IMG/VR virus record: IMGVR_UViG_3300050821_007016
Coordinates: 1-64,000 of that record
Strand: one strand, 5' to 3'
From: a virus
DNA length: 64,000 nt
Positions within the stretch are counted from its first letter, which is position 1. Each line of letters begins with the position of its first letter. Position numbers and translations under genes: made by a program. Positions 2,034 to 52,788 of this stretch are shown in pieces. Below the pieces are notes generated by a model. The model was not told the DNA's origin, did no database searches, and worked only from the letters and a program-made list of their open reading frames with translations.

Positions 2034-2044
2034 GTGGACCCCCT

Positions 2045-2788
2045 TCAGGCGTTGACGACGACGTAGGCCTTCACCCCGGTCGGCTTCGGAAGTACGCCTG
2101 AAGCCTGCACGATGGCGAGTTCTACGGGAGATAGGGCGAAATTGAAAGTGTAAGTCATCACCATCCGCGGCGCGATCTGCCCGGAGTAGAACGGAGCCTG
2201 GTTGAAGCCGAGACCGTCGGTGGCCTCCTCGAAGCCGAACCACGGACCGAACTGGCCGCCCTCGGTCACGAAGCAGTTGCCCCGGTGCGGGAACAGCGTC
2301 AGCAGCATCTGGTTCAGCATCGGGATAGAGCACTGCGAGATGTTGGCGAACGCCTTCGTCAGGATCAGCCGGCGGTAGGTCAGGTCATCCAGCGTGAAGT
2401 TCACCGTGGTGAACCCGCCGCTCCAGAACGGCGCTTGGTTGAATCCCATCGCGTCGCCCGCCTCCTCGAAGCCGAAGTGCGGGAACGGCTGGAAGATCGT
2501 GATGGTGCGCGCGACGCCGACGATTCGGCCCCAGACGTCGAGGCCGTAGCCGATCGCGCTGTCGACGTTGAAGATCAGGTCGAAGAAGTTGTCGATGTTC
2601 GCCGTCGGGTCGACATAGCCCGCGAAGTTGGTGATCAGCGTCGTCAGGATGGGCGAGTTCGCGTACTGGCTGGCGACCGTGTCCCAGATGTTGAACGGGC
2701 TGATCGTCCCGATCGGGCTGGTGCCGATCGTGAACTCGCCGATGGCGTTGTTGTCCGGGTCTACCGGCGGGTACGGAGGTCCGCTCAC
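2045..2788 (-). CDS. DUF2612-family baseplate wedge protein
   Basis: Start re-called to GTG 2788 (GTGA overlap with the baseplate J stop). Motifs SQYANSP, AIGYGLDVWGRIVGV, LDDLTYRRLI, LPKPTGV. Confidence 0.85.
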   Translation of the reverse strand: MSGPPYPPVDPDNNAIGEFTIGTSPIGTISPFNIWDTVASQYANSPILTTLITNFAGYVDPTANIDNFFDLIFNVDSAIGYGLDVWGRIVGVARTITIFQPFPHFGFEEAGDAMGFNQAPFWSGGFTTVNFTLDDLTYRRLILTKAFANISQCSIPMLNQMLLTLFPHRGNCFVTEGGQFGPWFGFEEATDGLGFNQAPFYSGQIAPRMVMTYTFNFALSPVELAIVQASGVLPKPTGVKAYVVVNA

Positions 2789-4200
2789 AGCAGGACCAGC
2801 TGGGTGTTGCCGGCCGCGGTAACCGGGCTCTGGTCGATGTTGATCAGCACCTCGTCGGCCGACGTGGAGACGCCCTGCATCGTGCCGCTCGCGACGGTCT
2901 GGGTCATGTTCAGCGTCCAGCTGGTGCCGGAGCCGGCGGTGATGATCGTGCCTGGAACGACGCCGTTGCCGGTGATCTGCTGGCCGATGCCGATGATGCC
3001 GGAGGTCACGGAAGTGACAGTCAGCGTCGTGCCGGCGATCGAGCCGACGAACACCGAGGCCGGCAGGTTGGAGCATCCCAGCTTGATGTTGACGATCTGC
3101 GCCCACGACCCCAGCGCCTGCACCACGCCGTAGTAGCGCGACGCCAGCAGCGTGTTGCCGATCCGCGCCCGCGGGCCGCCGTCCTGGCCGGCGAACGCCG
3201 ACAGGATCGCGTTCTGCACCAGCGTCGTCGCGTTGGATGGCACCAGGGGGTTGTTGGAGATGGCCACGGTGAAGGTGACGGTCACGAACGATGGCCGCTC
3301 GAACTGCACGGGGTACGACGGCAGCGGCGGGTTGTAGAGGGAGTTGGTGTCCTGGACGATGACGATGGTGTTGCCGTTGTAACCCGCGCCCGGCGACTTC
3401 TTCGACCACATCGCCTGCGCCACCGCTGCGTCGGTACCGCCGACCGCCGCGACGTAGATCGAGTTGGGGTTCAGCGTGAAGTCACCGACCGCCTGCGCGA
3501 ACTGGTTGACGTTCTCAGTGACGAACGCATCGGTCACGCCGGGCACGCTGAGCACCGCGCCGACGATCGAAGGCAGCGAGCCCTGCGCGTTCTGCGCCAC
3601 CGACAGCGCGCGGCGCTGCTCGAACGCCTGCCGGGTCTCGACGTTGGAGCCGATGGTGCCGTCGGTCAGGTTGGTCGCGGTGTCCCAGCCGTTGATGGCC
3701 TGGAAGATGCCGGAGGTCGACCCGCCGATCGCGCCGGCCGGGCAAGAGATCGGCCCTAGCGTCGTGCAGGCGAACTGGATCACCACGGTGCCCTGCGGCC
3801 CGATCGTCGCCGCGCCTACCGATGTATAGGTGTTGTTGGCGTCGTCGATCACCAGCGCGTTCGCCGGGATCACCACGCCGGGCAGGCCCCCGCAGGTGAC
3901 GTTGACGACGGTCGCGAACGCCGGGATGCGCGATATGAAGTAGATGCGCGCGATCGCATCCTGGTAGCGGCCGGAGTTGAGCGCCGGGTCGATCTGCTGC
4001 GACAGGAACGCGAACGCGTCGTTGGCGTTGCCGATCGCAGCGGTCTGGCTGATCGCGAGCTGCCCCTGCGGCGTCGAGTCGGCCATGTCGAGGTCGCCGC
4101 CGAACGCGTTGTTGATGTCCGACTGCACGGCGGTGAGGATCGCCTGCTCCGTCGGGACGACGAAGCCGTTGGGGCCGAACGATGGCTGCGGAACGGTCAT
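2785..4200 (-). CDS. Baseplate J/gp47-like wedge protein with inserted beta-module
   Basis: STPQGQL, DPALNSGRYQDAIARIYFISR, ETRQAFEQRR, VLSVPGVTDA motifs; synteny. Confidence 0.9.
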   Translation of the reverse strand: MTVPQPSFGPNGFVVPTEQAILTAVQSDINNAFGGDLDMADSTPQGQLAISQTAAIGNANDAFAFLSQQIDPALNSGRYQDAIARIYFISRIPAFATVVNVTCGGLPGVVIPANALVIDDANNTYTSVGAATIGPQGTVVIQFACTTLGPISCPAGAIGGSTSGIFQAINGWDTATNLTDGTIGSNVETRQAFEQRRALSVAQNAQGSLPSIVGAVLSVPGVTDAFVTENVNQFAQAVGDFTLNPNSIYVAAVGGTDAAVAQAMWSKKSPGAGYNGNTIVIVQDTNSLYNPPLPSYPVQFERPSFVTVTFTVAISNNPLVPSNATTLVQNAILSAFAGQDGGPRARIGNTLLASRYYGVVQALGSWAQIVNIKLGCSNLPASVFVGSIAGTTLTVTSVTSGIIGIGQQITGNGVVPGTIITAGSGTSWTLNMTQTVASGTMQGVSTSADEVLINIDQSPVTAAGNTQLVLL

Positions 4201-29518: not shown

Positions 29519-30625
29519 TCAGACGCCGAGCATGCCGCTGACGGCGAAGGGCATCCGAAGGATCGTTCCCCACACGCCGCTGGTCATCTTCTGCTTCCAG
29601 CTGGAGGGCTCGGGGATGAGCTTGTGCGAGCGGAGCTTCTCGTTGAAGGCCGGGTAGGCGACCTTCTGGTTGTCGACCTTGTCCACGATGATCTGGAACA
29701 GGTTGCCGACGGCCGAGTAGCCCTGGTTGTTCGTGGTCGTCTTGGCGCCGTACTGCGGGGCCGGGACGATCTTCATGTTCGGGAAGCCCTCTTTCAAAAG
29801 TCCCGCCACCGTCACGCCGAAGGAGTTCGCGAACTTCATCGCCAGCTGCGACTGCGGCGACAGCGCCAGCGTCATCGGGTCGTCCATGCCGACGGCGCCG
29901 TTGGTCTGGTTGATGATCTGCTCCACCACGGCGAGGATGTCGTTGTAGACCTCGTTGGCGGTAGCTGCCGGCGAGCCGGAGTTGAACCAGGTGGTGCCGC
30001 CCCAAGCCTTCACCGCCGGCGACAGGTAGGCCGACAGGAACGGGTTGTTGAGCAGGCCGTAGTTCTGCAGGTTCACGATGCCGAACGCGTAGGCGAGGTT
30101 GCCGAAGCGGTTGAGCAGGCCTGAGGCCGTGCCCGTCAGCTCGCTGACGTAGTTGATCCGCATCAGTCCGGCCCGCTCCGTCTCCCGCTCGCCGTAGGCG
30201 ATGAAGGTCTGGAAGAGGTACGACTGGAACTGCGGGTAGTTGAAGTTGATGCCGGTGCGGCCGTTGTTCGAGAAGTCGTCGTAGCTGGTGACCTCGCCGT
30301 CCTCTTCGATGACCGGGAAGATGCGGGTCTCTTCGAGCCAGTCGCCGGCCTTCTTCTCGCCGCCGAGGATTTTCGCGATCTGCAGCGGCGCGAACACGAC
30401 GCGGATCACGTCGGGGTCGATCGCCGTCGTCAGCATCATCGGCAGCGCCGCGTTCGGGTCGGTCGAGAGGTTGCCCGCGGCGTCCATCGCCAGCCCGACT
30501 AGGGACCGGTCCGAGTTCTTCCACTCGTCGGGCACGAGCATCCTGACGCCGGGGAGAACCAGCCCGTTGGCCTCGTAGACCGGCCTAAGCTCATTCCACG
30601 CTGCGATCGCTGCATTCCGGTCCAT
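29519..30625 (-). CDS. Major capsid protein (DUF2184/HK97 fold)
   Basis: LAMDA, IDP.VIRVVFAP, KKAGDW, GEVTSYDDFSNNG, QSYLFQT...YGERE, NYGLLNNP, FNEKLRSH, SSWKQK..G.WG; ATG 30625 best fits the AGGAG RBS. Confidence 0.93.
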   Translation of the reverse strand: MDRNAAIAAWNELRPVYEANGLVLPGVRMLVPDEWKNSDRSLVGLAMDAAGNLSTDPNAALPMMLTTAIDPDVIRVVFAPLQIAKILGGEKKAGDWLEETRIFPVIEEDGEVTSYDDFSNNGRTGINFNYPQFQSYLFQTFIAYGERETERAGLMRINYVSELTGTASGLLNRFGNLAYAFGIVNLQNYGLLNNPFLSAYLSPAVKAWGGTTWFNSGSPAATANEVYNDILAVVEQIINQTNGAVGMDDPMTLALSPQSQLAMKFANSFGVTVAGLLKEGFPNMKIVPAPQYGAKTTTNNQGYSAVGNLFQIIVDKVDNQKVAYPAFNEKLRSHKLIPEPSSWKQKMTSGVWGTILRMPFAVSGMLGV

Positions 30626-30656
30626 CGAGGTCACTCCTGCCTTAGTTGTCCTGGCC

Positions 30657-31653: not shown

Positions 31654-33837
31654 TCACAGGGTCGAGATGTTCTCCAGGCCGGGGGCCAGCTTGAGCGCCT
31701 TGTCCACCGCGTCCATCGCGATCGTCTGCGAGGAGTGATGCTCGGGCGCCCGCGCGCCGGCCTTCGGCAGCGTCTTGAGGATCGGCAGCAGCGCGTCAGC
31801 GTGGAGCGTCTTGGCGCCGTCCACGCTACGCATGACCAAGGCGTGGCGGTAGACGTCGGCCGCGCTGTCGAACGCCATCTTGGAGTCGATCTCGCCGACC
31901 CACGGCGCGACCTCCGCGATCGCCACCCTGACGCCGCGCTCGTTGTCCTTGAGTGCCTTCAGCTGCTTCTGGAACTCAGCGGCCTGCACCTGCAGCGCCG
32001 CGTCCATCGCCGGCTTGCTCACCATGTCCTTGTCCTTCTCGTCTTTGTCCGGGAACTCGTCGCCGCCAGCCGGGCTGGCCGAGAGGTTGCTCGACGGTCC
32101 GCCCGCGGCGATGTTCTGCCATTCGGGGGGCATCATGTCGCAGACCTTCTGGATGTCGTCCTCGCCCATGCCCTTCTCGCGCAGGAAGGCTTTCATCGGC
32201 TCGGCGTCGAAACCCTTCTTCTCGCCGGACTCGGCGCCTGGCGGGAAATCCTTCTTCTGGGGCTCTGGCTTGTCGATCGGGCCGACCTTCGCGGCCTCCT
32301 CGACCTCCTCCGGCTTGCCGCCGAACGGCTCGTCAGAAGCTTCCATGCCGCTGAAGGCGTCGACGGCCTTAGCGAGGTCCTCCATCGAGGCGTCGAGCGC
32401 TATGCCCTTGCGGAGCTTGCCCTCGGCCGCCTTGCGGATGCCGGCCAGCAGGTCCTTCTTGCTGGCGTTGAAATTCTTGGTGGTGAGCGACTTGAACAGA
32501 TCGACCGGCAGCGTGATCTTCTGGTCCATCGCGATTTGCGGCGCGATCTTCGCGGCCACGTGGTTGAGGACAACCGCTGCAAACCTGGTCGGCTTAGCCA
32601 TCTCGCTCTCCTTGAGTGCCTCGTCGCCGACGACCACGTCGGGTCCGGCTCGTCCGTCTTCCACTAACGCTACGTGATTGAAAACGATGTCCCGCATCAC
32701 TCCGTCGTAGTCGGTACCACGGAAATTTCCCGGTGTCATGTCCGGCTTGTAGTGGTAGCCGGCCGACAGCTCCTGCTGCCTTCCGGTCTCTATCGCGTCG
32801 ATCGCCTCCTGCGAGTTAACGAACAGCGAGTTGTCGAGGTACTCGCCATCGAACTCCGCGTCGGTCCCGAGCGAGCCAACGGTCTCATACGGGTGATGGT
32901 CGTCCGCGCTTACGGGCACGTGTTTGATAAGCAATTGCACGCCATTCAGCGTCGGCGCGGCCTTCGCAAGCTCCTCCGGGTCCCGTAGCAAAAAGTAGAC
33001 GCGGTCGGGCTCCAGCCCGATCTCTTCCCAGCCCGGAATCTCCTCGCCGCGGTAGGGGCAAACGTTGGCCTTCGAGACGTGGGTTCGCTTGACGATCAGC
33101 CGGCCGTCGCGGGTCTTCTCGCGGACCGAGTCGCGGTCCATCGCGATCTCGAATCGCGAATCAGCGCGCGGGCCGAACGACCTGTCCATCGCCATCGCGG
33201 AGTCCTGCGCCTGACTGACTCGATCTGAGTCACTCTTCTTCGGCGTCTGCGAGTTGCAGCACGCCTTCGGCTCGATCGGCCGGTCCTCGTGGAAGTAATC
33301 GCCGAGCTTCTCGTTCAGCTCCTCGTACCAGCCGCACTTCTCGTTGCCGCCGTAGAAGCAGTTCTCGCAGCGCACCGCGCGCTCGACGTAGCCGACCTCC
33401 TCCTTGGACGCGGAACCCCCCGCGCCCTCGGCCAGCTTGCCGGCGTGCTCCTTGACGACGCCTGGGTCCGGCGTGGCGTCCGGCGTGGGCCAGGACGCGA
33501 ACTCGCCGCACGACCCGCAGTCTTCGCCGCCATCAACGGCCTCCTGCGATCCCAGCACCACGCAGAGGTCGCAGCCCTTCTTGTGCTTGCCCTCCGCCGG
33601 CATCGCGTCCTTCGGAACCAGCATCCGGCAGGCGTAGCACTGCGCGTGCTGGTCGCGCATCTCCGGCGCCGCGTTCTTCGGCGGCTCCATATACTCGAAG
33701 ATCGAGCGGTCGTTCTTGGGGGCCGATTCGTCGGCGGCGACGAACTCCTCGCCCACCTTCTTCGGAATGCCGAGCGTCGAGTGGCCGTGCGCTGCGGCCT
33801 CCATCGCGTTATGCTGCTTCTCGCTCACTGACGGCAT
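31654..33837 (-). CDS. Prohead protease/scaffold (DUF2213) with Cys-rich N-terminal extension
   Basis: SKANVCPYRGEEIPG, LLRDPEEL.KAA.T, QELSAGY, YDGVMRDI.FNHVALVEDGRAGPDVVVGD. Confidence 0.92.
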   Translation of the reverse strand: MPSVSEKQHNAMEAAAHGHSTLGIPKKVGEEFVAADESAPKNDRSIFEYMEPPKNAAPEMRDQHAQCYACRMLVPKDAMPAEGKHKKGCDLCVVLGSQEAVDGGEDCGSCGEFASWPTPDATPDPGVVKEHAGKLAEGAGGSASKEEVGYVERAVRCENCFYGGNEKCGWYEELNEKLGDYFHEDRPIEPKACCNSQTPKKSDSDRVSQAQDSAMAMDRSFGPRADSRFEIAMDRDSVREKTRDGRLIVKRTHVSKANVCPYRGEEIPGWEEIGLEPDRVYFLLRDPEELAKAAPTLNGVQLLIKHVPVSADDHHPYETVGSLGTDAEFDGEYLDNSLFVNSQEAIDAIETGRQQELSAGYHYKPDMTPGNFRGTDYDGVMRDIVFNHVALVEDGRAGPDVVVGDEALKESEMAKPTRFAAVVLNHVAAKIAPQIAMDQKITLPVDLFKSLTTKNFNASKKDLLAGIRKAAEGKLRKGIALDASMEDLAKAVDAFSGMEASDEPFGGKPEEVEEAAKVGPIDKPEPQKKDFPPGAESGEKKGFDAEPMKAFLREKGMGEDDIQKVCDMMPPEWQNIAAGGPSSNLSASPAGGDEFPDKDEKDKDMVSKPAMDAALQVQAAEFQKQLKALKDNERGVRVAIAEVAPWVGEIDSKMAFDSAADVYRHALVMRSVDGAKTLHADALLPILKTLPKAGARAPEHHSSQTIAMDAVDKALKLAPGLENISTL

Positions 33838-33850
33838 GGCGTCGCGTTTA

Positions 33851-34087
33851 TCACGCGACCCGATTCCGCACAAACCGGATGCGCTGCTCTCCGGGCAGCT
33901 TCGCCCTCGGGTTGCCCTCGTCGTCCAGGATCGACTGCACCAGCATGTCCTTGATGATGACCTTCATCAGCCTCTGGACCAGGCGCCGCCGGGAAATCTG
34001 ACGGATGCGGCAGCAGGCATCGATGTAGTTGGCCTGTTCCTCGCTCAGAGTCATTTTGACCCTGATGTCCACGTCATCTACCTCCAT
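33851..34087 (-). CDS. Ribbon-helix-helix-like DNA-binding protein
   Basis: IRVKMTLSEEQANYIDACC...ISRRRLVQRLM. Confidence 0.5.
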   Translation of the reverse strand: MEVDDVDIRVKMTLSEEQANYIDACCRIRQISRRRLVQRLMKVIIKDMLVQSILDDEGNPRAKLPGEQRIRFVRNRVA

Positions 34088-34906: not shown

Positions 34907-35695
34907 TCAGCTGAAGCCTTTGATGACCGACCGGCTCACGCAGCGGCAGTTGATCAGCGTCCCCGGCCAGATGTAGTCGTTCACCTTGGGATCGGGATCG
35001 AACCAGCCCTTCGCCGGATCGTACTCCTTGCCGGAGTTGGCGAGGTGGGTCGGGCGCGGCTCCTTGCCGCCGTGGGAGTGAAGCCAGACCGCCTTCAGGC
35101 CCAGTTCGACCTGGCGCACGCGGACGAACACTGAAGTCGCCTTGTTGTTTTGATCTCGGGCGATCAGCGCGGCGCGCGCCCGCGTCAGGTCATAGCGCGC
35201 CTCCAGCATCTTCGTCAGCGAGCCGAGGTCGCGGCCGGCGGTGACCGAGCGCATCACCAGGCCCTCGACGTCCGAATGATACTTCTGCGCGATCGAGCGG
35301 ATCAGCCCGACGTTCTCCGCGATCGTCGCCTCGTAGGCGTCGCGCATGGTGGGCGTCATGTTGAAGGCGATCGTCATCCCGGAATCGCCGAGGATGCGCT
35401 TGAGCGACGCCGCGGACCGACGCTCGGCCGACTTGGCGAACCAGCGCGCCAGCTTCGGCGCCGTCTCGTTGATCCGCTTCTCCCAGCGCTTGCCGAGGTA
35501 GGAAAGCTCGCGCTGCAGCTCCTTGGCCGGCGTCGCGTCCATCGCCAGCCGCGGCGGATTGTCCCGGTACTGCGCCTTGATCCAGTGCGCGTAGGACCGC
35601 GCCATAGCCTCGACCAGAGCCGCGATCCGGCGGCGGTAGTCGGCCTGGATGCCGGCGTTGGGGTGCACGGGCCGGAGCGGCTTACTCTTCTTCAA
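34907..35695 (-). CDS. Minor head morphogenesis protein (SPP1 gp7 / Mu gpF)
   Basis: PVHPNAGI, ENVGLIRSI, RAALIARDQNNKA, W.HS.....PRPTH, PGTLINCRC. Start uncertain (TTG 35695 or ATG 35740). Confidence 0.88.
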   Translation of the reverse strand: MKKSKPLRPVHPNAGIQADYRRRIAALVEAMARSYAHWIKAQYRDNPPRLAMDATPAKELQRELSYLGKRWEKRINETAPKLARWFAKSAERRSAASLKRILGDSGMTIAFNMTPTMRDAYEATIAENVGLIRSIAQKYHSDVEGLVMRSVTAGRDLGSLTKMLEARYDLTRARAALIARDQNNKATSVFVRVRQVELGLKAVWLHSHGGKEPRPTHLANSGKEYDPAKGWFDPDPKVNDYIWPGTLINCRCVSRSVIKGFS

Positions 35696-35888
35696 GGTCC
35701 TCGCCCTCGGCTGCGGCCTCGTAGTCGGCTCGCAGATCATCGTCCGAATCGCCGCCGAGCACCGATTCAAACGCCTCTTCCTCGGCGTCGCGATCGGCGA
35801 TCGACCGCGAGGCCTCCTCCGGCGTCATGATCGAGATCGAGCCATCAGCCATCTCACCCGGTGCCCACTTTGCCTTGTCAGAGTTCAT
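35682..35888 (-). CDS. Small, very acidic protein (candidate ART immunity/antitoxin)
   Basis: GGAGGA RBS inside the end of the ART coding region; about one third Asp/Glu. Confidence 0.55.
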   Translation of the reverse strand: MNSDKAKWAPGEMADGSISIMTPEEASRSIADRDAEEEAFESVLGGDSDDDLRADYEAAAEGEDLEEE

Positions 35889-38800
35889 GCCATTCCTCCA
35901 GGTGAATCACGGTGGTGGCGCCGGTCGACAGCGCCTGGGACAGCTTCTCTACCTTGCCAACCTTGAAATAGGTGCGTCCGGCGAAGACTACCTCATCCTC
36001 GCCGCCGTGGACCGACAGCTTCTTGATGTCGGCCGCTCGTGAACTTCCCTTGGTGGGCGTCACGACGAACCGCACGTTGCCGCTAAAGACGCCGTTCGGC
36101 TTCTTCTTGCTTGTGCTCATTAGAGCCTTTTCCTGAATGATATGGCCCTCGGCGTAGTAGGCGATCTGCTCCTGAGACAAGTTCGTGTTGCGGATGAGGG
36201 GTTCGCCCTGGTAGCTCGGCATCGACTTGAGTGCCTTGTTGACCATCGCGACGTAGACGTGCTGGGCCGGGGTCCATTTGTCGGAGCGCAGCGCGGCGTT
36301 GACCTGGCCGAAACCCCCGTCGCTATAGTTCTTTATCAGCGCGCATTCGAAGCCGGAGATCGGGTATCCGTATGCCTCGGCCTCCTTTGCATACTTCTGG
36401 AAGTCCTCGACCAGGTCCGCCTTGCCCATCATCTTCGCCAGAGCGTCGAAGCCCTCGGCCTGGGTCTCGGATATGCCGAGTTCCTTGATGTATTTCTTGT
36501 TCTTTTCGGCCTTTTCCTTGGCGAGCGCGACGGCCTTGTCCGCGAGTGCCTTTGCGTGGGCGGCTGCCTGGGCTTTCTCGGCCTCTAGCTTTGCTGCAGC
36601 TGCCTTTTGCTGTTCGCTCTGCAGCGGCTTCATTGCCTCGACGAGGTCTTTGAAGTCGTTGACCTTCTCTTGCAGCTTATCTGGCGTGGTTTTATTGAGC
36701 CACTTAGCGTTGAACTCGTTGACTAATCCTTGCGCCTTCAGGCTGTCCTGGGGCGCCCCCGGGACATATTGAATTTTCAGCGGCACATTCTTTTTCGCCT
36801 TTTCCAGCTCTCCCGCGGTCGCTGGACCGTGCTTCGTGGCAGGTGGCGGCGCTGGCGCCTTTGGTGGCTCCTGCTTGATCTCGACCTTCTGAGGCTCGGG
36901 TTTCGATTTGGCAGCCTCGGCTTTGGCCGCGGCCAGTTCCTCCGGCGTCATCTTCACGCCCTTGTATTTGGTGACGCCGCCCTCCTTGGTTTTCTCCAAC
37001 TTCATGCCGAGGGTTTTCGCCATCTGAGGCATCGAGATAGTCGGCCAGTTCAGCGCCGCCAGCATCTCCTGCGTCGTAGTCCCCTTCGTGAGCAGGTGCG
37101 CGGCGTGCTCCTTTTTCGATTTGAATGCGGGCGTCGATCCCCCGCCGCCGCCTCCAGAGGTGAACTTGCCATCTGGCGCCCGGGGATGCTTGGACTCCTC
37201 GAAGGAGGCCTCGTCAGTGGCGCCAAAAGGGCCGGCGGCATCGTTAGCCCCGCCTCCCTCTCCGCCTTGCCCGTCGGCCTCTTTCTCGAACTCGGTGGCG
37301 CTCCCTCCCGCGCCCGGCCCGAGCAGGCCCTCCTCGGCCGGCGGCTCCGGCACGTCGTCGGGGTCGAGCCCGGTATAGGGCAGGTCCGGGTCCTCGATGA
37401 TCGCCTTCCTGATCTCGCCCGGCGCCAGCGCGCCCATGTCGACGTACTTCTGGTTGCGGTCGGCGTCGTCCTTCTCCTTCTGGCCCTTCTCCGCCAGCGT
37501 CATCTCGCGCAGCGGCTTCCATGTGAAGGTGATCTCGGGGTCGATCTCGCCCCACAGCGACAGCTGCTCGAAGTTGATGATCCGCCGCAGGTTCGGGTCC
37601 AGCACCCGCTTCTGGTAGGCCGCGATCGTGTCGTCGTAGGTCTTGATCTCGCCCTCGCTCGACGCGTTCAGCCCCGAGGGCTGGATGCCGGTGAACTTCA
37701 CGAGCGGGATGCGGTGCACGCTCGCCATGTGCTCCTGCGCCTGCGCCTGCAGCTCGTGCAGCCCGCTCAGCGGCGCGGACACGTTGGCGAAGTCCTCGGT
37801 CGCTTCGTTGATCACGTAGGTGTTGGCGTTGTCGCGCATCATGTTGAACATCGCGACGCGGGACAGCATCTGCGCCGCGTTGTTGTTGTTCAACAGCGTC
37901 GACAGGTCGGTCTTGAGCACCATCACCGAGAACGAGTGGATCAGCTGCGCCACCGAGGAGCGGGTCTGCAGCCAGATGTCGACGTATGGCTTGGCCATCT
38001 CCGACAGCGATATGCCGCCGAAAGCGTAGGCCGGCTTGAGCATGTCCGGCACCGGGTGCGCGATGAACGTCTGCAGCCGCGAGCCGTGGAACTCCTTGCC
38101 CATCACGAACCAGACCTGCGGGTTGTACCAGTCCGCCCGCGTCGGGTCCCACGCGTTGTAGGCCAGCGGGTAGGTCCAGACCGGCTCGATCGTTTGCAGC
38201 CGCTTGAACGAGCCGGGCGTGACCTTGCTCCGGCTGACTGCGTCATCGGCGACGCCGGTGCCGATCGCCGTCTTCATCTCGTCCGCCGTCGGCTCGATGT
38301 TGTTGGTCCAGATGTCCAGCAGCAGGTGCGACCGGCCGAAGAAGCCGTTGTTGCGCGACTGCGCGTGGAAGCGGTGCGCGACCTCCAGCCGGAGCTGGTC
38401 GTCCTGCAGCGCCTTGACCTTGTCGGTCTTGCCGGCCTCCTTGACGCGCTTCCTCTTCTCGTCCGGATCGGCCATGCGCTCGGCGAAGCCCTCCGGGTCT
38501 TTCTCGGCCTCCTCCTGGTTGGCCTTCTCGTCGCCGACCACATCAAAATCAATCCATTCTCTCGTCGCATCGTCGGCGATCGTCTCGGCCATCACCCGAT
38601 ACTCGGGCCGCTGCGCCAGGGCGCTTAGGAAGCTGTAGCCAAGGAAGCCATTGCCGTCGCCGGGGAAGTTGTCGAAGCTGCCGCCGGCCGCCCACGCGTC
38701 GCTGCAGAAGCTGAGGTTGCCCATCAGGGCGCTGTCCATCGCCATCGACATCGTGGCCGGGACCGCAGCCTTCGGGAAATCCGGCAGCCGGAACGGCGAG

Positions 38801-39333
38801 TTGTCCCTGGTGCGCTCGACGCGCTGCGAGTAGCGCTCGAAGACCTCGGTGATCTGCGGCAGCATCTCCATCCAGCGGTTGGGATCGACCTTATCTTTTG
38901 GCTCGGCTGGTACGGTTTCCGACATGATAGACGTAGGAGCCGGAGATGCTGGCGTTATCGGTGCTTCTTCTGATTTATGGTGGCGAGCGCCGCCCCATTG
39001 GGGGCCATGATGAACCTTCTTGATCTTAAGATGCTCTCTGAACATCTTTGCTTCGATCGCTTCGATCACCTCTAGCGGCGTTTTGCTTACCCATTCCCCT
39101 ACCGTTTTGGCGTCCGTTTTCAGGTCGGAGATTATCTCCCATTCGAACCGAGTAGCCGTCTCCTGGTCGGGCATCTCATAGGCGGCGAAAATCTTCAGCT
39201 TATGGCCGTTGCCGGTCTGCAGCTGCCGAAGCCTCTTGTCGATGTCGCGGTAGGTGAGGCCGATTTTGGTAACGCGGTGACCGCGAGAACGCGCGATGAC
39301 GTAGAGCTTGGGAACCTCGACCGTTTCCGTCAT
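35878..39333 (-). CDS. Portal protein (DUF1073) fused to N-terminal GIY-YIG and C-terminal wHTH plus ADP-ribosyltransferase domains
   Basis: LYVI...TKIGLT...RLRQLQTGN...E...GEW (T5orf172-type GIY-YIG). FLGY..L..LAQRPEYR, IEPVWTYP, LKPAYAFGGISL, IPLVKFTGIQPSGLNASSEGEI (portal). Y...F..VNAALR, LIR, MSTS, EDEVVF (R-STS-ExE ART). Confidence 0.9.
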   Translation of the reverse strand: MTETVEVPKLYVIARSRGHRVTKIGLTYRDIDKRLRQLQTGNGHKLKIFAAYEMPDQETATRFEWEIISDLKTDAKTVGEWVSKTPLEVIEAIEAKMFREHLKIKKVHHGPQWGGARHHKSEEAPITPASPAPTSIMSETVPAEPKDKVDPNRWMEMLPQITEVFERYSQRVERTRDNSPFRLPDFPKAAVPATMSMAMDSALMGNLSFCSDAWAAGGSFDNFPGDGNGFLGYSFLSALAQRPEYRVMAETIADDATREWIDFDVVGDEKANQEEAEKDPEGFAERMADPDEKRKRVKEAGKTDKVKALQDDQLRLEVAHRFHAQSRNNGFFGRSHLLLDIWTNNIEPTADEMKTAIGTGVADDAVSRSKVTPGSFKRLQTIEPVWTYPLAYNAWDPTRADWYNPQVWFVMGKEFHGSRLQTFIAHPVPDMLKPAYAFGGISLSEMAKPYVDIWLQTRSSVAQLIHSFSVMVLKTDLSTLLNNNNAAQMLSRVAMFNMMRDNANTYVINEATEDFANVSAPLSGLHELQAQAQEHMASVHRIPLVKFTGIQPSGLNASSEGEIKTYDDTIAAYQKRVLDPNLRRIINFEQLSLWGEIDPEITFTWKPLREMTLAEKGQKEKDDADRNQKYVDMGALAPGEIRKAIIEDPDLPYTGLDPDDVPEPPAEEGLLGPGAGGSATEFEKEADGQGGEGGGANDAAGPFGATDEASFEESKHPRAPDGKFTSGGGGGGSTPAFKSKKEHAAHLLTKGTTTQEMLAALNWPTISMPQMAKTLGMKLEKTKEGGVTKYKGVKMTPEELAAAKAEAAKSKPEPQKVEIKQEPPKAPAPPPATKHGPATAGELEKAKKNVPLKIQYVPGAPQDSLKAQGLVNEFNAKWLNKTTPDKLQEKVNDFKDLVEAMKPLQSEQQKAAAAKLEAEKAQAAAHAKALADKAVALAKEKAEKNKKYIKELGISETQAEGFDALAKMMGKADLVEDFQKYAKEAEAYGYPISGFECALIKNYSDGGFGQVNAALRSDKWTPAQHVYVAMVNKALKSMPSYQGEPLIRNTNLSQEQIAYYAEGHIIQEKALMSTSKKKPNGVFSGNVRFVVTPTKGSSRAADIKKLSVHGGEDEVVFAGRTYFKVGKVEKLSQALSTGATTVIHLEEWHEL

Positions 39334-39974: not shown

Positions 39975-40393
39975 CAGGACGCGGTTGCGACGATCTGGAC
40001 AGAACCGAGGACTTGCGGCGCGGCGTCGACCTCAACGTCGATCAAGGCCGAGAAGCTGGCACCGCCCACCGCTAGCGCGACGCTGACGACGTCGGTTCCG
40101 GCCGCGAGCGCGACGCCGGTGGCCGTCAGGCCGTCCGCGGACGCCGTGACCGTCTCCGTGGCAGGCGTGGTGTTCGTCCAGGCCGGGGCCGCGTCGGGCT
40201 TCGGCGTGACGATCATGGGATTGCCGTTCGTGTCGAAGAACGCCAGCGAATACGCGACCGAGTGACCGACCGTTACCTTGATGCCCATGATGTGTCTCCG
40301 ATTCGGGTGAGGATGATGGTGATGCCGAACGTGCGCGATGATTACCACACTTTTCAAGACCTGGCGGCGACGGTGGAGGAATTGACTCAGCAT
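39974..40393 (-). CDS. Ig-like (Big_2-type) domain protein with His-rich leader
   Basis: D.NGNP...W......TV..SADGLTA.....G...V.V. Two in-frame starts with RBS (40393 and 40288). Confidence 0.65.
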   Translation of the reverse strand: MLSQFLHRRRQVLKSVVIIAHVRHHHHPHPNRRHIMGIKVTVGHSVAYSLAFFDTNGNPMIVTPKPDAAPAWTNTTPATETVTASADGLTATGVALAAGTDVVSVALAVGGASFSALIDVEVDAAPQVLGSVQIVATAS

Positions 40394-40596
40394 TATTTTG
40401 TCTCCCCGATGGACGGCCTGGTCCTTGGCGCATGCTCGCTCTGGACCATGAGCCTGTCGCCGTAGCGCTTGCGAAGGGTCTGCTGCCGGGTTCGGTGGCA
40501 CTTCTTGCATTTCCCCATCTTACCGTCGCTATTGCCATCGGCGGCGTAGTAGTCGTCGAGGGGTTTGCGCTGGAGGCAGTGGCTGCATGTTTTCAT
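40393..40596 (-). CDS. Small zinc-finger protein (HNH/EndoVII-associated type)
   Basis: MKTCSHC...KPL..YY......DG....CKKC. Confidence 0.6.
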   Translation of the reverse strand: MKTCSHCLQRKPLDDYYAADGNSDGKMGKCKKCHRTRQQTLRKRYGDRLMVQSEHAPRTRPSIGETK

Positions 40597-40799
40597 GTCC
40601 AGCTCCCGTCGATGCCTGCCAGCAGCATCTTCCACGATAACTGCATGGCCTCGAACGATGCCTCGCAGAGCAGGGCGACTTCGTCCTTGCGCTTCGGTAG
40701 CGGGAGGATGGTGGCCTCGGCGTCGATCGAGCCGCGCCTCATAGCCTTCTCGATCGGGAATCGGATCAGGGTCGCGGTCATGAGCTTGTGTGTCCGCAC
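40593..40799 (-). CDS. Hypothetical protein
   Basis: Coupled ORF. Confidence 0.4.
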   Translation of the reverse strand: MRTHKLMTATLIRFPIEKAMRRGSIDAEATILPLPKRKDEVALLCEASFEAMQLSWKMLLAGIDGSWT

Positions 40800-41017
40800 C
40801 AGGGAGGGGAATAGCCGGCTCCGGGAGAGGCCTCGCGGGCCTCCTGCTCCTCCTTTTTCCGCCGCTTGATCTCGTCGTCCATCTTGACCTGGACGGCCGT
40901 GAGGCCCTGCAAGAATCCAATTTTGTAGGCGAGGGCATAATTACGGCCAACATGCTCTGTGCTGATCTCTAAGAGCCAGCCGTCGATCTGCTCGTTGGTG
41001 AATGTTTCGGTCGTCAT
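40778..41017 (-). CDS. Hypothetical protein
   Basis: ATGA-coupled start at 41017. Confidence 0.5.
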   Translation of the reverse strand: MTTETFTNEQIDGWLLEISTEHVGRNYALAYKIGFLQGLTAVQVKMDDEIKRRKKEEQEAREASPGAGYSPPWCGHTSS

Positions 41018-42215: not shown

Positions 42216-43886
42216 TTAAATCCGGCCGGCCCGCGCGATCTGCTGCAGCATCGATCCGGTCACCTCGATCGGCTCCGGCGGCATCGGCGCGTAGCGGATC
42301 ACGACCGCGTCCGCCTGGTTCGGGCTCTTGGTGCCCTCCGGCTTCTTTTCGATCACGATCTTGCCGAGGTCGTTCTGCTTGTAGGTCGCCTGCGACAGCT
42401 CCGCCACCAGCTTCATCAGGTTCGGGTTGTTGCGGCTGAGCGAGACCATGTCGTCGACCTTGCACGGCGTGCCCTCGGCGCCGCCGGTCTCCATGTGCCG
42501 CACGGCGCGGTAGGTCTTCTGAAATCGCTTCCGCAGCGCCCACCACGATTGTGCCTTGTGGTTGGCGAAGTAATCCTCGTTAGTGCGGCCGGTGTCTCCC
42601 GAGAGGCCGATCGTGCCCTCGACGATGCCCTCCGGGTCCACCACACCCACCGAGCCTCGGTAGCCTATGGCCTTGACCATCCGAGCCTTGGCCCGCTGGC
42701 GCCGCTCGTTGATCACCCTGGAGTCGCCGCCCACGCCAGCCCCGAGGCCGTCGGCGTCGTAGCGGAACTCGGTCAGCTCGTGGTCATCGCAGAGGTCGAA
42801 CACGTACTCCGTCGACGAGAAGATGTCCGAGCCCTTGCCGCTCCACTCCTCGGTCTCCAGCACCTCGATGCCCTTGCAGATGCAGACCGCGTTCTTGTCA
42901 TCGCCCTCGTCGGCCACGTCGAACGCGATCGCCTTGCGCCCAGCCGGCGCGATGCCGAGCTTCTCGCAGGCGCCGATCGCCGCGCGCACCCAGATGCCGG
43001 GGATCACCACGCCCTTGACAGAGGCCGCGTAGTCGCGGTCGATCTCCTGCGCCACCACGACCGGGTCTAGCTCCGCGCACTGCTTGTCGTACCACGCCTG
43101 GTCCTTCCGAGGGTCGTCGCGCCAGTCGAAGATGAACACGTCGATCTTGCCGCCCCAGCGCTTCTGGGCGAACGGGTTCGCCATGCCGCGCACCGACGAC
43201 ATGTCGATCCGGCAGTTGGTGGTCTGCGACAGCGAGGCCTCGACCAGCTCGGGCCGCGGCAGATGGGCCGCCTCGTCCACGAAGTAGATGCTGGTGCGGT
43301 CGCCGCGGCCGATGTCGTCGCCGCCTTCTCCCGCGATCAGCGAGCCGGTGTTCGGGAACGTGATCCGCATGAACGGGGCGTCGCGCCACGCCACCCAGTC
43401 GCCCTTGAACTCAATGGGCAGGTTTTCCATGAAGGTCCGGCCCTTGGGGAAGATAGGCTTGAGCGTACCGATCTTGTCGACGTACTCGCCCTTGCGCGAA
43501 CCGAACCCGATCGACAGCCCCTCGTAGAGCAGGCAGAGCGTGCATGACAGCGCCATCGACAGCCAGGTCGCGCCCACGTCGCGGGACTTCTCGATCAGGC
43601 CGGGGCGGCGGTTGCGCCACTTGTCGATCACGTACTCGACGAACTCGCGCTGCTTCGGGAACATGATGAAAGGGATCGCCGCCGGCAGGCCGATCTCGAC
43701 GTTGCGCGGTTCGTGCATCATGCCCCAGTCGCAGATGAAGTCGGCCGGCGCGGTGCGGTAGTGGTCCATGTAGGCCGGCACGACCTCGGGGTGCTCGCGC
43801 AGCCGCTTCAGGTTTTCCATGCGGGTGTTCATCGCCAGCGCGTAGTCGGGGTTCTTCCAGTCCCACTTGATCGGCTTAAGCAACAT
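42216..43886 (-). CDS. terL: Terminase large subunit
   Basis: IEKSRDVGATW (Walker A-like), YFVDEAAH (Walker B), FDVADEGDD and YDADGLGAGV (RNase H fold), KSPNQADA. Confidence 0.95.
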   Translation of the reverse strand: MLLKPIKWDWKNPDYALAMNTRMENLKRLREHPEVVPAYMDHYRTAPADFICDWGMMHEPRNVEIGLPAAIPFIMFPKQREFVEYVIDKWRNRRPGLIEKSRDVGATWLSMALSCTLCLLYEGLSIGFGSRKGEYVDKIGTLKPIFPKGRTFMENLPIEFKGDWVAWRDAPFMRITFPNTGSLIAGEGGDDIGRGDRTSIYFVDEAAHLPRPELVEASLSQTTNCRIDMSSVRGMANPFAQKRWGGKIDVFIFDWRDDPRKDQAWYDKQCAELDPVVVAQEIDRDYAASVKGVVIPGIWVRAAIGACEKLGIAPAGRKAIAFDVADEGDDKNAVCICKGIEVLETEEWSGKGSDIFSSTEYVFDLCDDHELTEFRYDADGLGAGVGGDSRVINERRQRAKARMVKAIGYRGSVGVVDPEGIVEGTIGLSGDTGRTNEDYFANHKAQSWWALRKRFQKTYRAVRHMETGGAEGTPCKVDDMVSLSRNNPNLMKLVAELSQATYKQNDLGKIVIEKKPEGTKSPNQADAVVIRYAPMPPEPIEVTGSMLQQIARAGRI

Positions 43887-44058
43887 TCCAGGGACCAAAA
43901 TCGTTGGCGATTGGCCAGAACGCCCCGTCGGATACCGGCCACCGAAAGCAGGCGATGGTCACGGTCGAGCCCGCGGTTATGATCCAGCGCAGCCTGAACT
44001 CGGCGATCGCCTGGTTCGACGCGTCCTTCCATGCCGGGTAGAAGAACAGGTCGATCAT
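43876..44058 (-). CDS. Hypothetical protein
   Basis: ATGA-coupled; GGTGAGG RBS. Confidence 0.45.
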   Translation of the reverse strand: MIDLFFYPAWKDASNQAIAEFRLRWIITAGSTVTIACFRWPVSDGAFWPIANDFGPWNVA

Positions 44059-50009: not shown

Positions 50010-50519
50010 GTGACGCTGAGGATCGAATGCGCGGCCGAGGGCTTCTTCTCAATCAAGCTGCGCGAGGTCGAGATCGAGACCGCCCCCCACACGGGGCGGA
50101 CCTACTACATCCACGGCGGCCGGATCATCGCCGTCGCAACCAGGGAAGAGAACGATGACGAACCAGAAACTAGATCAAGCGTTGGCCTTCCTGCAGGGCC
50201 GAAAGCTGGACGCGATGCTACTCGGGCCGGCCGATCGGATCACGGAGAACCAGAGCGTAAGCGATCAGGCGGTCGAATTGTTGGAGCAGATGCTTCCGGG
50301 CCAGAAACTCATGGTGGCGGACGGATTGCCGCCCACCGCGATCATCGCCCCGGAGGAGAGGAAGAACGCGTGGAAAGGCAAGCGGCCTCGACCCACGCAC
50401 TCGATGCACTTCGAACAATCTTCGAAGAAGGAGGAGGACCCGGCGACCAGAAAGCTCCGCAAGGAGCTGGCCGACGCGGAGGCGAAGAAGAAGGCCGAGC
50501 GCTTAGCGCGGCTGAATGA
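50010..50519 (+). CDS. Hypothetical protein (3' two-thirds overlaps the next gene)
   Basis: Strong AAAGGAGG RBS; only the first ~50 aa look protein-like. Confidence 0.35.
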   Translation: MTLRIECAAEGFFSIKLREVEIETAPHTGRTYYIHGGRIIAVATREENDDEPETRSSVGLPAGPKAGRDATRAGRSDHGEPERKRSGGRIVGADASGPETHGGGRIAAHRDHRPGGEEERVERQAASTHALDALRTIFEEGGGPGDQKAPQGAGRRGGEEEGRALSAAE

Positions 50520-50907
50520 ACTCAAACAGGCGGCCAAGGCTGCCGCAACCCCGAAGGAGAGTACCATGAGTGCTGCTACCCACCACACCACCACGAAGGC
50601 CGATCAGGTGAAGGCCTTGCGCGTCAAGCGGGCGACGACCAAGGCCGCACCCAAGAAGGCCGCACCGGCGAAGCCGGCTAAGGCCAAGCAGACCGCAAAG
50701 GCGATCCCAGGCATCCGTCCTGGTTCCAAGTTGGAAATTGTGGCCGGCCTGTTGACCCGCAAGGAGGGTTGCACCACGGCCGACGTCCTCAAGGCCACCG
50801 ACTGGCCGGCGGTCTCGATGCCGCAAATGGCGAAGTCGGCCGGGCTGAAGCTCCGCAAGGAGAAGGCCAAAGGGGAACCCACCCGGTATTATGGGACGGC
50901 GGCTTAG
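50155..50907 (+). CDS. Lys/Ala-rich protein with C-terminal DUF3489-like wHTH
   Basis: RPGSKLEIVAGLLTRKEGCTTADVLKATDW...GLKL...TRYY; internal AAGGAG-ATG start at 50566. Confidence 0.7.
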   Translation: MTNQKLDQALAFLQGRKLDAMLLGPADRITENQSVSDQAVELLEQMLPGQKLMVADGLPPTAIIAPEERKNAWKGKRPRPTHSMHFEQSSKKEEDPATRKLRKELADAEAKKKAERLARLNELKQAAKAAATPKESTMSAATHHTTTKADQVKALRVKRATTKAAPKKAAPAKPAKAKQTAKAIPGIRPGSKLEIVAGLLTRKEGCTTADVLKATDWPAVSMPQMAKSAGLKLRKEKAKGEPTRYYGTAA

Positions 50908-50960: not shown

Positions 50961-51293
50961 GTTCGGGCGCACGTACAGCCAGCGCCGCTCGATAGGGCGG
51001 CCTTCCACGCTGGCCCGATTGATACCCTGGAGCATCCCCTGGCTGATCCCCCGGTCGCAATAAACCACCGTCGCCTCGGCGGCGATCCCCCAGGCCAGCC
51101 CAGCCTCAATCCCGAGCGCGCGCTCCTCGGGCCGGGCGTCGTCAAGAATCCCCGGCCACAAGAGGTGACTCGCGAGTGGGCTTTCGTTTCGCAGCAGGCT
51201 GTCGAGCATCGCCTCCCGCGCGTACTGCTTGTTTCGTTCCGTTTCCATTGGCGTGCTGCCGCGAAACGGCGACTCGAGGATTACGCGTCGCAT
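50940..51293 (-). CDS. Nucleoside deoxyribosyltransferase-like fold protein
   Basis: VILESPFRG...N..YAR....DSL.R.E.P.ASHLL....LDD..PEER..GI.AG..W.......VY.DRGIS.GM. Confidence 0.7.
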   Translation of the reverse strand: MRRVILESPFRGSTPMETERNKQYAREAMLDSLLRNESPLASHLLWPGILDDARPEERALGIEAGLAWGIAAEATVVYCDRGISQGMLQGINRASVEGRPIERRWLYVRPNEKAGAT

Positions 51294-52599
51294 CCTTGCC
51301 TCCCTTTCGTGCTTTGGTGATCTCGGCGAACGTGCGGCCATCGCCGGCCAGGACAGCTTCGGCCTTGGCGAAGGTCTGCCAGCGCTCGATGCAGACGTCG
51401 ACATAAGCCGGGTTGATCTCGATCGCGATCGCGTAGCGGTTCATCATCTCGGCTGCGATGATCGTGGTGCCGCTGCCGGCGAATGGCTCATAGACATAGT
51501 TGCCGGGCTTGCTGTTGTTCTGGATCGGGCGGCGCATGCACTCGATCGGCTTTTGGGTGCTGTGGCCTGTCTCCGAAGCCCGGTGTTCGATGTCCCACAT
51601 CGTAGTCTGCTTGCGATCTCCGGACCACGCGCCCGTGGCGCCTTTGCGAACCAGATACCAGCACGGCTCGTGAGCCCAATGGTAGTCGCCTCGGCCGATG
51701 ACCATCCGTCCTTTATTCCAGATAATCTGAGCGCGGACCTCGAAGCCCACAGATCGAAAAGAAAGATCGACGCTGCTGGCATGCCGACCGGCATGCCAGC
51801 AGTAAGCGACGTTGCCAGGAAACAGACTCCATGCCTCTCGCCAGTCCGATTGATCGTCGTTCTCGACTTTTCCGATCGCTCTCGCGCCGATTGGCTTGTC
51901 CGCTTTCCCGCTTCTTAGACGCTGAAAACCCCCATTGAGTGTTCGGCCGGCTTCGTTGCGCCAGTTTGCATCATACTCAACGCCATAGGGAGGATCGGTC
52001 ACCATCAGATGCGGCTTCTTGCCATCCAGCACGCGCTCGACGTCCTCGGTCTTGGTGCTGTCGCCGCATAAGATCCGATGCTTGCCCAGCTGCCACAGAT
52101 CGCCGACGCGGCTGATTGGTTTGACCGGCGGCTCCGGCGTGGCTTCGGGATCGGCGCCGTTCGGCACCGACAGAAACGATACCAGTTGCACATCATCGAA
52201 GCCGAGCAGCGGCATTTCGTAGCCGGCCAGCGACAGCTCGCTCAGTTCAATCCGCAGCAATTCTGGTGACCATGTCGACAGCAGCGCATAGCTGTTGTCC
52301 TTGATCCGATAGGCCCGCTTCTGCTCCTCGCTCCAGCCGCGCGCCACTACGACCGGGTATTTCGCGAAAGCATTTTTCTCCGCGGCCAGCCGGCGGCCGT
52401 GGCCGTAGATGATCACGCCTTCCTCATCGACCAGGATCGGCGAGGTAACGCCGTCGTCCTTCATCGAGCCCGCGATCAGATCGACCTGCTCTGGCGAATG
52501 CTGCCGCGGATTCCCGGGATACGGGATGATGCGCTCCAGCGCCCACAGCTCGGTCTTTGACGCAGGCCACGACTCTTCCATCGCCTTCGGTTTTTTCAC
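51142..52599 (-). CDS. ParB-N domain plus N6/N4 DNA methyltransferase
   Basis: PYPGNPRQH...PILVD...GHGR..AA; WQLGKHRILCGDS; TDPPY; HSTQKP; EPFAGSGTT. Start re-called to GTG 52599. Confidence 0.92.
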   Translation of the reverse strand: MKKPKAMEESWPASKTELWALERIIPYPGNPRQHSPEQVDLIAGSMKDDGVTSPILVDEEGVIIYGHGRRLAAEKNAFAKYPVVVARGWSEEQKRAYRIKDNSYALLSTWSPELLRIELSELSLAGYEMPLLGFDDVQLVSFLSVPNGADPEATPEPPVKPISRVGDLWQLGKHRILCGDSTKTEDVERVLDGKKPHLMVTDPPYGVEYDANWRNEAGRTLNGGFQRLRSGKADKPIGARAIGKVENDDQSDWREAWSLFPGNVAYCWHAGRHASSVDLSFRSVGFEVRAQIIWNKGRMVIGRGDYHWAHEPCWYLVRKGATGAWSGDRKQTTMWDIEHRASETGHSTQKPIECMRRPIQNNSKPGNYVYEPFAGSGTTIIAAEMMNRYAIAIEINPAYVDVCIERWQTFAKAEAVLAGDGRTFAEITKARKGGKDATRNPRVAVSRQHANGNGTKQAVRAGGDARQPAAKRKPTRESPLVAGDS

Positions 52600-52788
52600 A
52601 GCGGATACCTCTGCGCGGAGTAATAGACCCTCGGCTTGCGCCGCCTCGGTGGCTTGTAGCTCATCAGGATAGCGCCGCGTCGCGCCAAGAGTAGAAGTGC
52701 AGGTCATCACGAAAAACGACCAAACGACCATCCTCAACATCATATGCCGCGCGATAACCGCGAACAATTGCAATCAATTTCCACAACA

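Follow-up and report, generated by a model that had tools for sequence, protein, structure and literature searches.

A phage portal protein fused in frame to a nuclease-fold domain in front and an ADP-ribosyltransferase behind, with predicted head-protease sites

The subject of this work is a single gene in the head module of an uncultured soil phage, the polyvalent portal gene of the IMG/VR virus record IMGVR_UViG_3300050821_007016. The record is 74,647 bp long, has direct terminal repeats and is rated 100% complete, and the stretch of DNA that we analysed as a whole (in the following the window) comprises its bases 1-64000. Reading of the open reading frame (ORF) confirmed that the gene encodes one protein of 1151 amino acids free of stops, as had been claimed in an earlier note made from the DNA letters alone, and that this protein carries, in one frame, a nuclease-fold domain ahead of the portal and an arginine-type ADP-ribosylating enzyme behind it (Table 1). 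The domain coordinates of that note all proved correct when Pfam and PHROG matches were consulted. The ORF starts at its first ATG, six codons past an upstream in-frame stop, and it is the sole portal-type match in the complete 74.6-kb genome. The order of genes in the head module is large terminase (TerL), HNH/EndoVII gene, portal, MuF, DUF2213 protein, minor head protein and major capsid protein, with TerL lying upstream of the portal and MuF, the DUF2213 protein and the capsid protein downstream of it.

Table 1: Parts of the portal gene and neighbouring head genes in the window. A slash within a motif marks a predicted cut; residues are numbered in the protein concerned.
Feature	Residues	Position (nt)	Strand	Basis or remark
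Polyvalent portal, whole gene	1-1151	35878..39333	(-)	stop-free ORF; stop codon 35878-35880
T5orf172/MUG113 domain, GIY-YIG superfamily	1-110	39004..39333	(-)	Pfam MUG113; alignment; AF2 (AlphaFold2) model
Joint HHGPQ-WGGAR and conserved leader (VPAEPK..LPQI..NPFRLPDFP)	111-197	38743..39003	(-)	GC3 (G+C at third codon positions) 0.46 in codons 101-150
Predicted protease site A-M-D in SMAMD/SALMG	198-200	38734..38742	(-)	cut would free residues 1-200; SMAMD/SAL is at residues 196-203
Portal core, PF06381/phrog_146, C-terminal end ..IIEDPDLPYTGLDPDDVPEPP..	201-690	37264..38733	(-)	Pfam, PHROG
Predicted protease site A-T-D in PFGATD/EASF, before cargo	705-707	37213..37221	(-)	predicted from the motif
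HPR joint/tag, EASFEESKHPRAPDGKFTSGGGGGGSTP	708-735	37129..37212	(-)	only copy in genome
Winged helix-turn-helix, DUF3489 type	736-810	36904..37128	(-)	model; paralogue match
P/A/K-rich linker, conserved segment (ELEKAKKNVPLKIQYVPGAP..), ~70-residue helix	811-955	36469..36903	(-)	no family match
R-S-ExE ADP-ribosyltransferase	956-1151	35881..36468	(-)	Pfam, PDB sequence matches, Foldseek
Catalytic residue R1048	1048	36190-36192	(-)	
Catalytic residue S1073	1073	36115-36117	(-)	
Catalytic residue E1112	1112	35998-36000	(-)	
Catalytic residue E1114	1114	35992-35994	(-)	
Large terminase		42216-43898		upstream of portal
HNH/EndoVII-type endonuclease gene		40393-40953	(-)	phrog_1035, E 9e-11; GC3 0.63
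MuF head-morphogenesis gene		34907..35770	(-)	separate neighbour; predicted site RLAMD/ATPAK at residues 74-83
DUF2213 head-maturation protease/scaffold protein	1-739	31654..33873	(-)	739 aa; presumed cutter; five AMD sites bracketing its own domains
Major capsid protein		29519..30634	(-)	phrog_264; LVGLAMD/AAGNL at residues 45-56, LAMD/AAG at residues 48-54

The middle of the protein is the portal core, matched by Phage_portal_3 (PF06381, formerly DUF1073) at residues 235-627 (E 6e-68, 229.5 bits against a cut-off of 33.8) and by the phrog_146 portal at residues 195-683 (E 2e-88). For the comparison within the family we used 120 long relatives of 633-2015 aa, and family counts are given over 121. 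Besides the portal these long proteins carry ADP-ribosyltransferase (ART), Nudix, zeta-type kinase, TopoIB, ART-PolyVal and His-phosphatase domains as well as inteins; a homologous ART ends 68 of the 121, and the complete module of winged helix, long helix and ART is found in 22. Both this family and the architecture of the window protein support the earlier proposal that enzyme cargo is carried by the portal. The accompanying statement that extensions at both ends of a portal are unusual holds for the N-terminal extension, whereas the C-terminal ART is, by these counts, common. Hint/intein domains (PF13403, PF14890) were seen in the portals P0036, P0038, P0041, P0048, P0065, P0072, P0109 and P0112, so that some portal genes of this family have also been invaded by inteins.

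The ART was identified by three kinds of comparison. The Pfam family ADPrib_exo_Tox (PF03496) matches residues 1055-1136 marginally, with 24.3 bits against a cut-off of 23.4, and the same family reaches 34 bits in the relative P0002; PDB sequence matches were obtained to Vis (5e-7) and Tre1 (1e-5); and a Foldseek search gave Tre1 (6drh/6dre) as the best structural match (E 3e-10, TM score 0.77-0.79, root-mean-square deviation 2.8 A), followed by XopAI, C3, Vis, SpvB and ExoT. In total 127 PDB chains were found at E<=1e-3, and all among the matches listed are ARTs. The motifs LIR(1048)NT, MS(1073)TS and GE(1112)DE(1114)VVF stand in register with Vis and Tre1, and R1048, S1073, E1112 and E1114 are invariant in 31 relatives. 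The R/STS/EDE enzyme that the earlier note had recognised at the C-terminus is thus intact by sequence and by its predicted Tre1/Vis/C3-like fold. An ExE motif of this kind points to arginine-specific protein mono-ADP-ribosylation. Nudix, ARH or Macro genes were not found in the phage genome, and the lack of such an antidote gene fits an injected enzyme like Alt of phage T4 rather than a toxin-immunity pair.

The model of the C-terminal module, which was built with 30 relatives and has a mean predicted local distance difference test (pLDDT) of 88, shows winged helix, linker, helix and ART in this order. The winged helix consists of three helices and a beta hairpin (pLDDT >90). On its own it matches DUF3489 with E 0.29, and it is 55% identical to a paralogue at 50725-50898(+) that matches DUF3489 at E 9e-7. 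The P/A/K-rich linker is disordered in the model, the long helix takes up model residues 149-217, and the whole segment 811-955 has homologues in 54 of the 121 relatives. The paralogue is the end of a 250-aa ORF (50155-50907(+)) that adjoins a ParB-DNA methyltransferase fusion gene (51142-52773(-)); a winged helix common to this ORF and to the portal cargo may point to a common DNA or protein partner.

For the N-terminal domain Pfam gives MUG113 at residues 23-94 (23.5 bits, cut-off 22.3), whereas E 0.2 is all that is reached with the generic GIY-YIG model. A PDB sequence search with the domain gave no match. Its AF2 model (pLDDT 87) resembles the GIY-YIG nucleases Slx1, HIGLE and UvrC-N first, together with UPF0213, with probabilities up to 1.0 but weak scores (best E 0.016, TM score ~0.5). 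From an alignment with 38 free-standing relatives it can be seen that all family-invariant or near-invariant residues are kept, namely Y11, K23, G25, R34, E64, G79, E80 and W81. An exhaustive search of 1.8 billion representatives yielded 62 relatives, 59 of which are free proteins of 79-275 aa; the three that were checked each match both T5orf172 and MUG113. Three relatives are longer. Two are partial matches of the C-terminal half of the query at internal sites, and the third, P0121 (1218 aa), is another portal with an N-terminal domain 60% identical to that of the window, an identical junction HHGPQWGGAR, an overall portal identity of only 44% and a different C-terminal cargo. A word-indexed search with residues 1-135 for further T5orf172-portal fusions returned only the query. 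The domain is thereby present in only two of the 121 long portals and missing from closer portal relatives (60-85% identical), so that the N-terminal fusion is rare, with one other case that has the identical junction.

Related portals begin with M[AG]WGG[AR]RPGAGRK, which shows that the nuclease-fold domain was joined exactly at the ancestral start and that WGGAR in the joint is its remnant. A basic motif of this type, M-A-x-GWGG-x-R-x-G-S-G-R-K, heads most portals of the family (as in the starts of L003-L007) and also some free T5orf172 proteins (P0126, P0132). The GWGG-type motif is portable and could have served as a recombination point for the T5orf172-portal fusion. The alignment upstream of the portal starts gave no usable DNA conservation, and we therefore gave up the assumption that the domain was inserted precisely downstream of a conserved ribosome-binding site. 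An internal start of the portal at MSETVP near 38925, suggested earlier as a possibility, did not stand up: it has no Shine-Dalgarno sequence and sits inside a region that is conserved in relatives, and although an ATG close by is preceded by AAGAAGG, it lies in another frame.

Codon usage differs along the gene. The portal core has a GC3 of 0.95, the N-terminal domain one of 0.72 and the C-terminal module one of 0.68-0.86, with the lowest value in the junction (Table 1); for comparison, TerL has 0.93, MuF 0.91 and neighbouring head genes 0.88-0.94. Both extensions are thus lower than the core, as had been noticed from the sequence; the recent capture that was deduced from it is plausible and remains unproven, as linkers rich in Lys, Glu and Ala also depress GC3. 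The cargo of one relative shows a milder dip. As the genome is a metagenome assembly and public read cover is patchy and low (~2-3x), it had to be considered that a missed stop, a frameshift or a chimera had joined separate genes into one long ORF. We regard such an artefact as very improbable. Short contigs from soil metagenome runs of different studies span both junctions (38945-39212 in run X4 and 37083-37238 in run X1) with identical sequence and no indels listed, one of the bridging runs possibly being the source sample. The independent protein P0121 carries the same N-terminal junction, the portal runs on into the ART in 68 relatives, and the genome, with its direct terminal repeats, is rated complete. 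The fusion is genuine.

What the N-terminal domain does in this fusion can be read in two ways. The earlier note took it as an effector, and the architecture on which this was based holds; as a statement of function it went too far, because the domain may instead be a fused selfish gene of the homing-endonuclease type. T5orf172 genes are phage homing endonucleases of the GIY-YIG type that cluster near essential genes and mark recombination boundaries (bioRxiv 10.1101/2023.03.23.533998), and for this reason we keep a selfish origin open. According to this explanation the domain is a homing-endonuclease-type gene or its relic, fused in frame at the 5' end of the portal gene and tolerated since the portal leader either is flexible or is removed by cleavage at residues 198-200 (AMD), and the interpretation of the ART as cargo would be unchanged. 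We consider this quite possible, if somewhat short of probable. It is favoured by the mostly free-standing, small relatives of the domain, by the low GC3 of domain and joint against the core, by a second low-GC3 gene (HNH/EndoVII) between terminase and portal, and by the distribution of the fusion, whose presence in two portals of 44% identity and absence from relatives of 60-85% identity suggests transfer of a cassette together with the joint. On the other hand, the frame and every family-invariant residue have been kept in two copies that have diverged to 60% identity, which indicates selection on the fused protein; Pfam shows no CapR, DUF723 or DUF4397 zinc-finger partner on the portal-fused domain, which thus has no DNA-binding domain as typical T5orf172 homing enzymes do; and a position in front of a likely protease site is what a packaged cargo needs. 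The HNH/EndoVII gene and the T5orf172 domain are two nuclease-type insertions with foreign codon usage around the portal gene.

At the other end of the core, the cargo is connected by a peptide that we call the HPR joint. The motif FEESKHPRAPDGKFTSGGGG was found where the earlier note had put it (residues 711-730, about nt 37144-37203), and the joint of the window portal has the form FEESKHPR..GKF..GGGG. With the consensus [FW]xE[SG][DK]HPRxxxG[KQ]F[GAT]SGGGG it occurs in 105 of the 121 long relatives, in one to four copies and always at a module boundary. In the closest relative, P0002, two HPR joints flank a block of Nudix plus a kinase-like module. The single joint of the window is a hybrid of these two, its upstream part matching the first joint of P0002 and the part from FEESK on matching the second, and the window form therefore differs from P0002 by the loss or gain of one block at the joints. 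From this we infer that the HPR joint is a standard module boundary at which cargo modules are swapped, gained or lost, and it is probably also a tag at the protein level. Free-standing cargo headed by the tag was not found in a clean form among shorter proteins, where 12 matches look like contig-end fragments or split genes, and literature searches on the HPR motif together with portal gave no description of the tag. The portals P0055, P0084 and P0107 stop 25-60 residues after the motif and have no cargo, which may sit in the following ORF or have been lost. In P0002-P0006 and others the Nudix domain is followed by a conserved module of ~250 residues (KKVGGKMGSNEGG..FYVKRP..HAWL.NWD..G.GGDN) between two HPR joints; in appearance it is kinase- or HipA-like, the precomputed lists contain no Pfam match for it, and some relatives with this module also have a CxxC..C..C zinc ribbon.

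In order to place possible cut sites we looked at the motif A-x-D. Within 10 residues before an HPR joint it is present in 80% of 163 instances compared with 6.5% background. All eight AMD tripeptides of the predicted proteome (20,233 aa) fall in four head proteins, namely the capsid protein, the DUF2213 protein, MuF and the portal (Table 1), where about 0.39 would be expected out of 3.1 in the whole proteome (Fisher 6e-8). The AMD positions are kept in the uncultured relatives G001 and G002, in the cultured Burkholderia phage PE067 and Klebsiella phage RCIP0114 and in PB1, and [MLI]AMD is found at the portal site in about 90 of the 121 relatives, in register with LSVAMD/SA of PB1. The capsid protein of the window is homologous to that of PB1 (E 1e-19), and the alignment starts exactly at the AMD site. 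For the capsid protein of the PB1-like phage KPP12 the mature N-terminus has been determined by Edman sequencing as SNFTAPV.., and this sequence directly follows ..RSGSAMD in the PB1 precursor, so that cutting after AMD is proven for a homologue of the window capsid protein. In homologous portals cutting after AMD is likely. For E217 the ordered part of the capsid protein begins at residue 66 and that of the portal comprises residues 97-528 of 765, ending in a barrel that points into the head; for Pa193 neither the map nor liquid chromatography-mass spectrometry shows the first 93 portal residues, for which the authors suggest cleavage as a possibility. The A-x-D sites proposed in the earlier note have thus gained concrete, if indirect, support: the motif is confined to head proteins, conserved in position and in register with the KPP12/PB1 capsid cut. 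Hydrophobic-A-x-D is very probably the site of the DUF2213 head protease, and we infer cutting of the window portal at D200/S201 and, less firmly, at D707/E708. Literature searches on DUF2213 and DUF1073 with cleavage found nothing on the specificity of the protease.

The DUF2213 protein has an N-terminal extension of ~227 residues with Cys pairs (CYAC.., CDLC.., CGSC.., CENC..). AMD sites at residues 228 and 244 bracket this extension off the protease domain, and three more would cut the scaffold-like C-terminal part, so that by its sequence it looks like a second self-processed polyprotein with a small cargo of its own.

Taken together we consider it rather probable that the fusion is a dodecameric portal carrier that is trimmed by the head protease and whose cargo is injected, the ART then modifying host proteins. 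In this model the fusion protein would assemble as the dodecameric portal of the procapsid with the C-terminal module hanging from the inward-pointing end, so that up to 12 copies of each add-on would come to lie inside the head. Cuts by the DUF2213 protease after hydrophobic-Ala-x-Asp would fall behind D51 of the capsid protein, within the scaffold part of the protease protein itself and within MuF, and during head maturation the protease would also cut the portal after D200 (SMAMD/S) and probably after D707 (GATD/E). The products would be a standard portal core and two freed pieces, both of which would remain in the head: the N-terminal 200 residues, which contain the nuclease-fold domain, and a ~48 kDa cargo with the HPR peptide at its front. 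Like T4 Alt, the cargo would accompany the DNA into the next host, where it would mono-ADP-ribosylate arginine on host proteins, possibly directed to DNA-bound proteins by its winged helix. The window form would correspond to the P0002 form minus the Nudix-plus-kinase-like module between two HPR joints. A more general proposal, which we put forward tentatively and hold to be possible rather than probable, is that DUF2213 phages use a two-part grammar of hydrophobic-A-x-D cut site and [FW]xExxHPRxxxGxF-Gly-rich tag by which enzyme modules are loaded onto head proteins, swapped and freed within the capsid. Here one protease would set free the nuclease-like domain from the N-terminus of the portal and the ART from its C-terminus, the portal being a double-ended delivery vehicle.

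Several points weigh against this model. The candidate site that precedes the cargo reads A-T-D and has Gly at P4, which makes it weaker than the [ILM]-A-M-D sites, and the HPR motif may serve the portal itself rather than tag cargo, since some relatives end just past it without any. The N-terminal piece may be lost instead of being kept as cargo, because a cleaved portal N-terminus goes undetected in PB1-like virions. The T5orf172 domain lacks a DNA-binding partner domain and only two such fusions exist, and the Pfam scores of MUG113 and ART are each only ~1 bit above the cut-off. The first two of these points also favour another explanation, namely that the extensions stay attached to the portal and are not injected, with a function in the cell that produces the phage or within the head itself: the ART may modify host or phage proteins late, and winged helix and long helix may hold the DNA end or plug the channel. 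Expression of the gene would coincide with that of the late structural genes, free subunits might act in the cytoplasm, and the portal ends of E217 and Pa193, including the InPase, are merely invisible in the maps, which is no proof of cutting. We nevertheless regard permanent attachment as unlikely, as A-x-D precedes 80% of the joints and agrees with the cleaved site of a homologous capsid protein, as the cargo types Nudix, zeta kinase, TopoIB and InPase have no structural role, and as T4 Alt is a precedent for a packaged and injected ART.

Enzymes that are loaded into a virus head for delivery are here a real but precedented case. Fusions of ART, Nudix, InPase, 2H and PBECR domains to portal or MuF have been described explicitly (Iyer et al. 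2017, PMC5512222; 2022, PMC9503650), so the kind of protein, including portal- or MuF-fused ART effectors, is known. Like the polyvalent proteins of PMC5512222, which carry several enzyme domains on a head protein, belong to the late genes and are predicted to be packaged and injected, the window portal has at least two conflict-type domains (nuclease-fold and ART) in a late virion-gene module. It differs from them in three respects: GIY-YIG/T5orf172 is not mentioned in the 2017 paper, which also has no junction peptide or head-protease cut site and discusses processing only via MPTase domains, and the polyvalent-type ARTs are a different clade from the R-S-ExE enzyme of the window. Literature searches for a T5orf172 domain on a portal, for the HPR joint and for a hydrophobic-A-x-D rule found none of them. 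A preprint on phi24B mentions polyvalent proteins but has no bearing on the portal family treated here.

The closest known head module is that of the PB1-like phages (PB1 ORF17, E217 gp19, Pa193), in which a PF06381 portal, MuF and a DUF2213 protein likewise occur together with a homologous capsid protein, and which share with the window a C-terminal enzyme on the portal and AMD in register in portal and capsid. The PB1 (L016) portal at 1112-3421, in contrast, has neither an HPR joint nor a folded N-terminal domain, and its cargo is not an ART but a C-terminal InPase (E 2e-43) behind A-x-D sites of the LEALD/D type. As it carries this enzyme without the HPR motif, a portal can bear cargo in the absence of the tag.

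With regard to the enzyme, T4 Alt belongs to the same R-S-E catalytic class as the window ART but is a separate protein and not fused to the portal, and no direct sequence match to it was obtained. It is directed to the scaffold core, and gp21 cleaves it at L/I-x-E, different from the hydrophobic-A-x-D that is presumed here for the DUF2213 protease. Alt is packaged in the head, undergoes processing by the prohead protease and acts on proteins of the host as infection begins (summarised in Iyer et al.). The best structural and sequence matches, Tre1 (a Serratia type VI secretion effector, 6DRE/6DRH) and Vis (Vibrio, 4XZJ), have R, STS and ExE in common with the window enzyme at an identity of only ~24%; they are delivered by type VI secretion or secreted, and Tre1 has an ARH-type immunity partner for which the phage genome has no counterpart. 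Both are arginine-specific. The MuF polymorphic toxins likewise consist of a head protein with a swappable C-terminal toxin domain (Jamet et al. 2017, PMC5576092), but in the window the carrier is the portal, MuF is a separate and unextended neighbour, and no immunity gene was found. The T5orf172 homing endonucleases of ICP1- and T5-like phages (bioRxiv 10.1101/2023.03.23.533998) contain the same domain with its conserved Glu and lie beside an essential structural gene; unlike the portal-fused domain they are free-standing and have zinc-finger DNA-binding domains, of which the window protein has none.

Enzymes packaged by phages encounter the host and its defences before any other phage protein does, and to our knowledge T4 Alt is almost the sole packaged ART that has been studied. 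The proteins compared here form a large, uncultured family of portals that themselves act as carriers of swappable enzymes, and the gene of the window adds a rare nuclease-fold add-on at the N-terminus. The cut-site rule predicts exact fragment starts, S201 and E708 for the portal and A52 for the capsid protein, and the junction tag adds the module boundaries. With such exact ends the cargo hypothesis becomes directly testable by virion proteomics. The cultured relatives with the same head module include therapeutic PB1-like Pseudomonas phages.

With regard to the origin of the phage, no prophage relatives were found in a first scan of representative bacterial genomes, and a second scan with the cargo alignment gave one match in a metagenome-assembled genome of Sulfuritalea, which as a single match is too thin to name a host. 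No RNA dataset is among the public runs listed as holding the gene. The public runs that hold parts of it are soil metagenomes, and the terminase DNA is 68% identical to that of Burkholderia phages.

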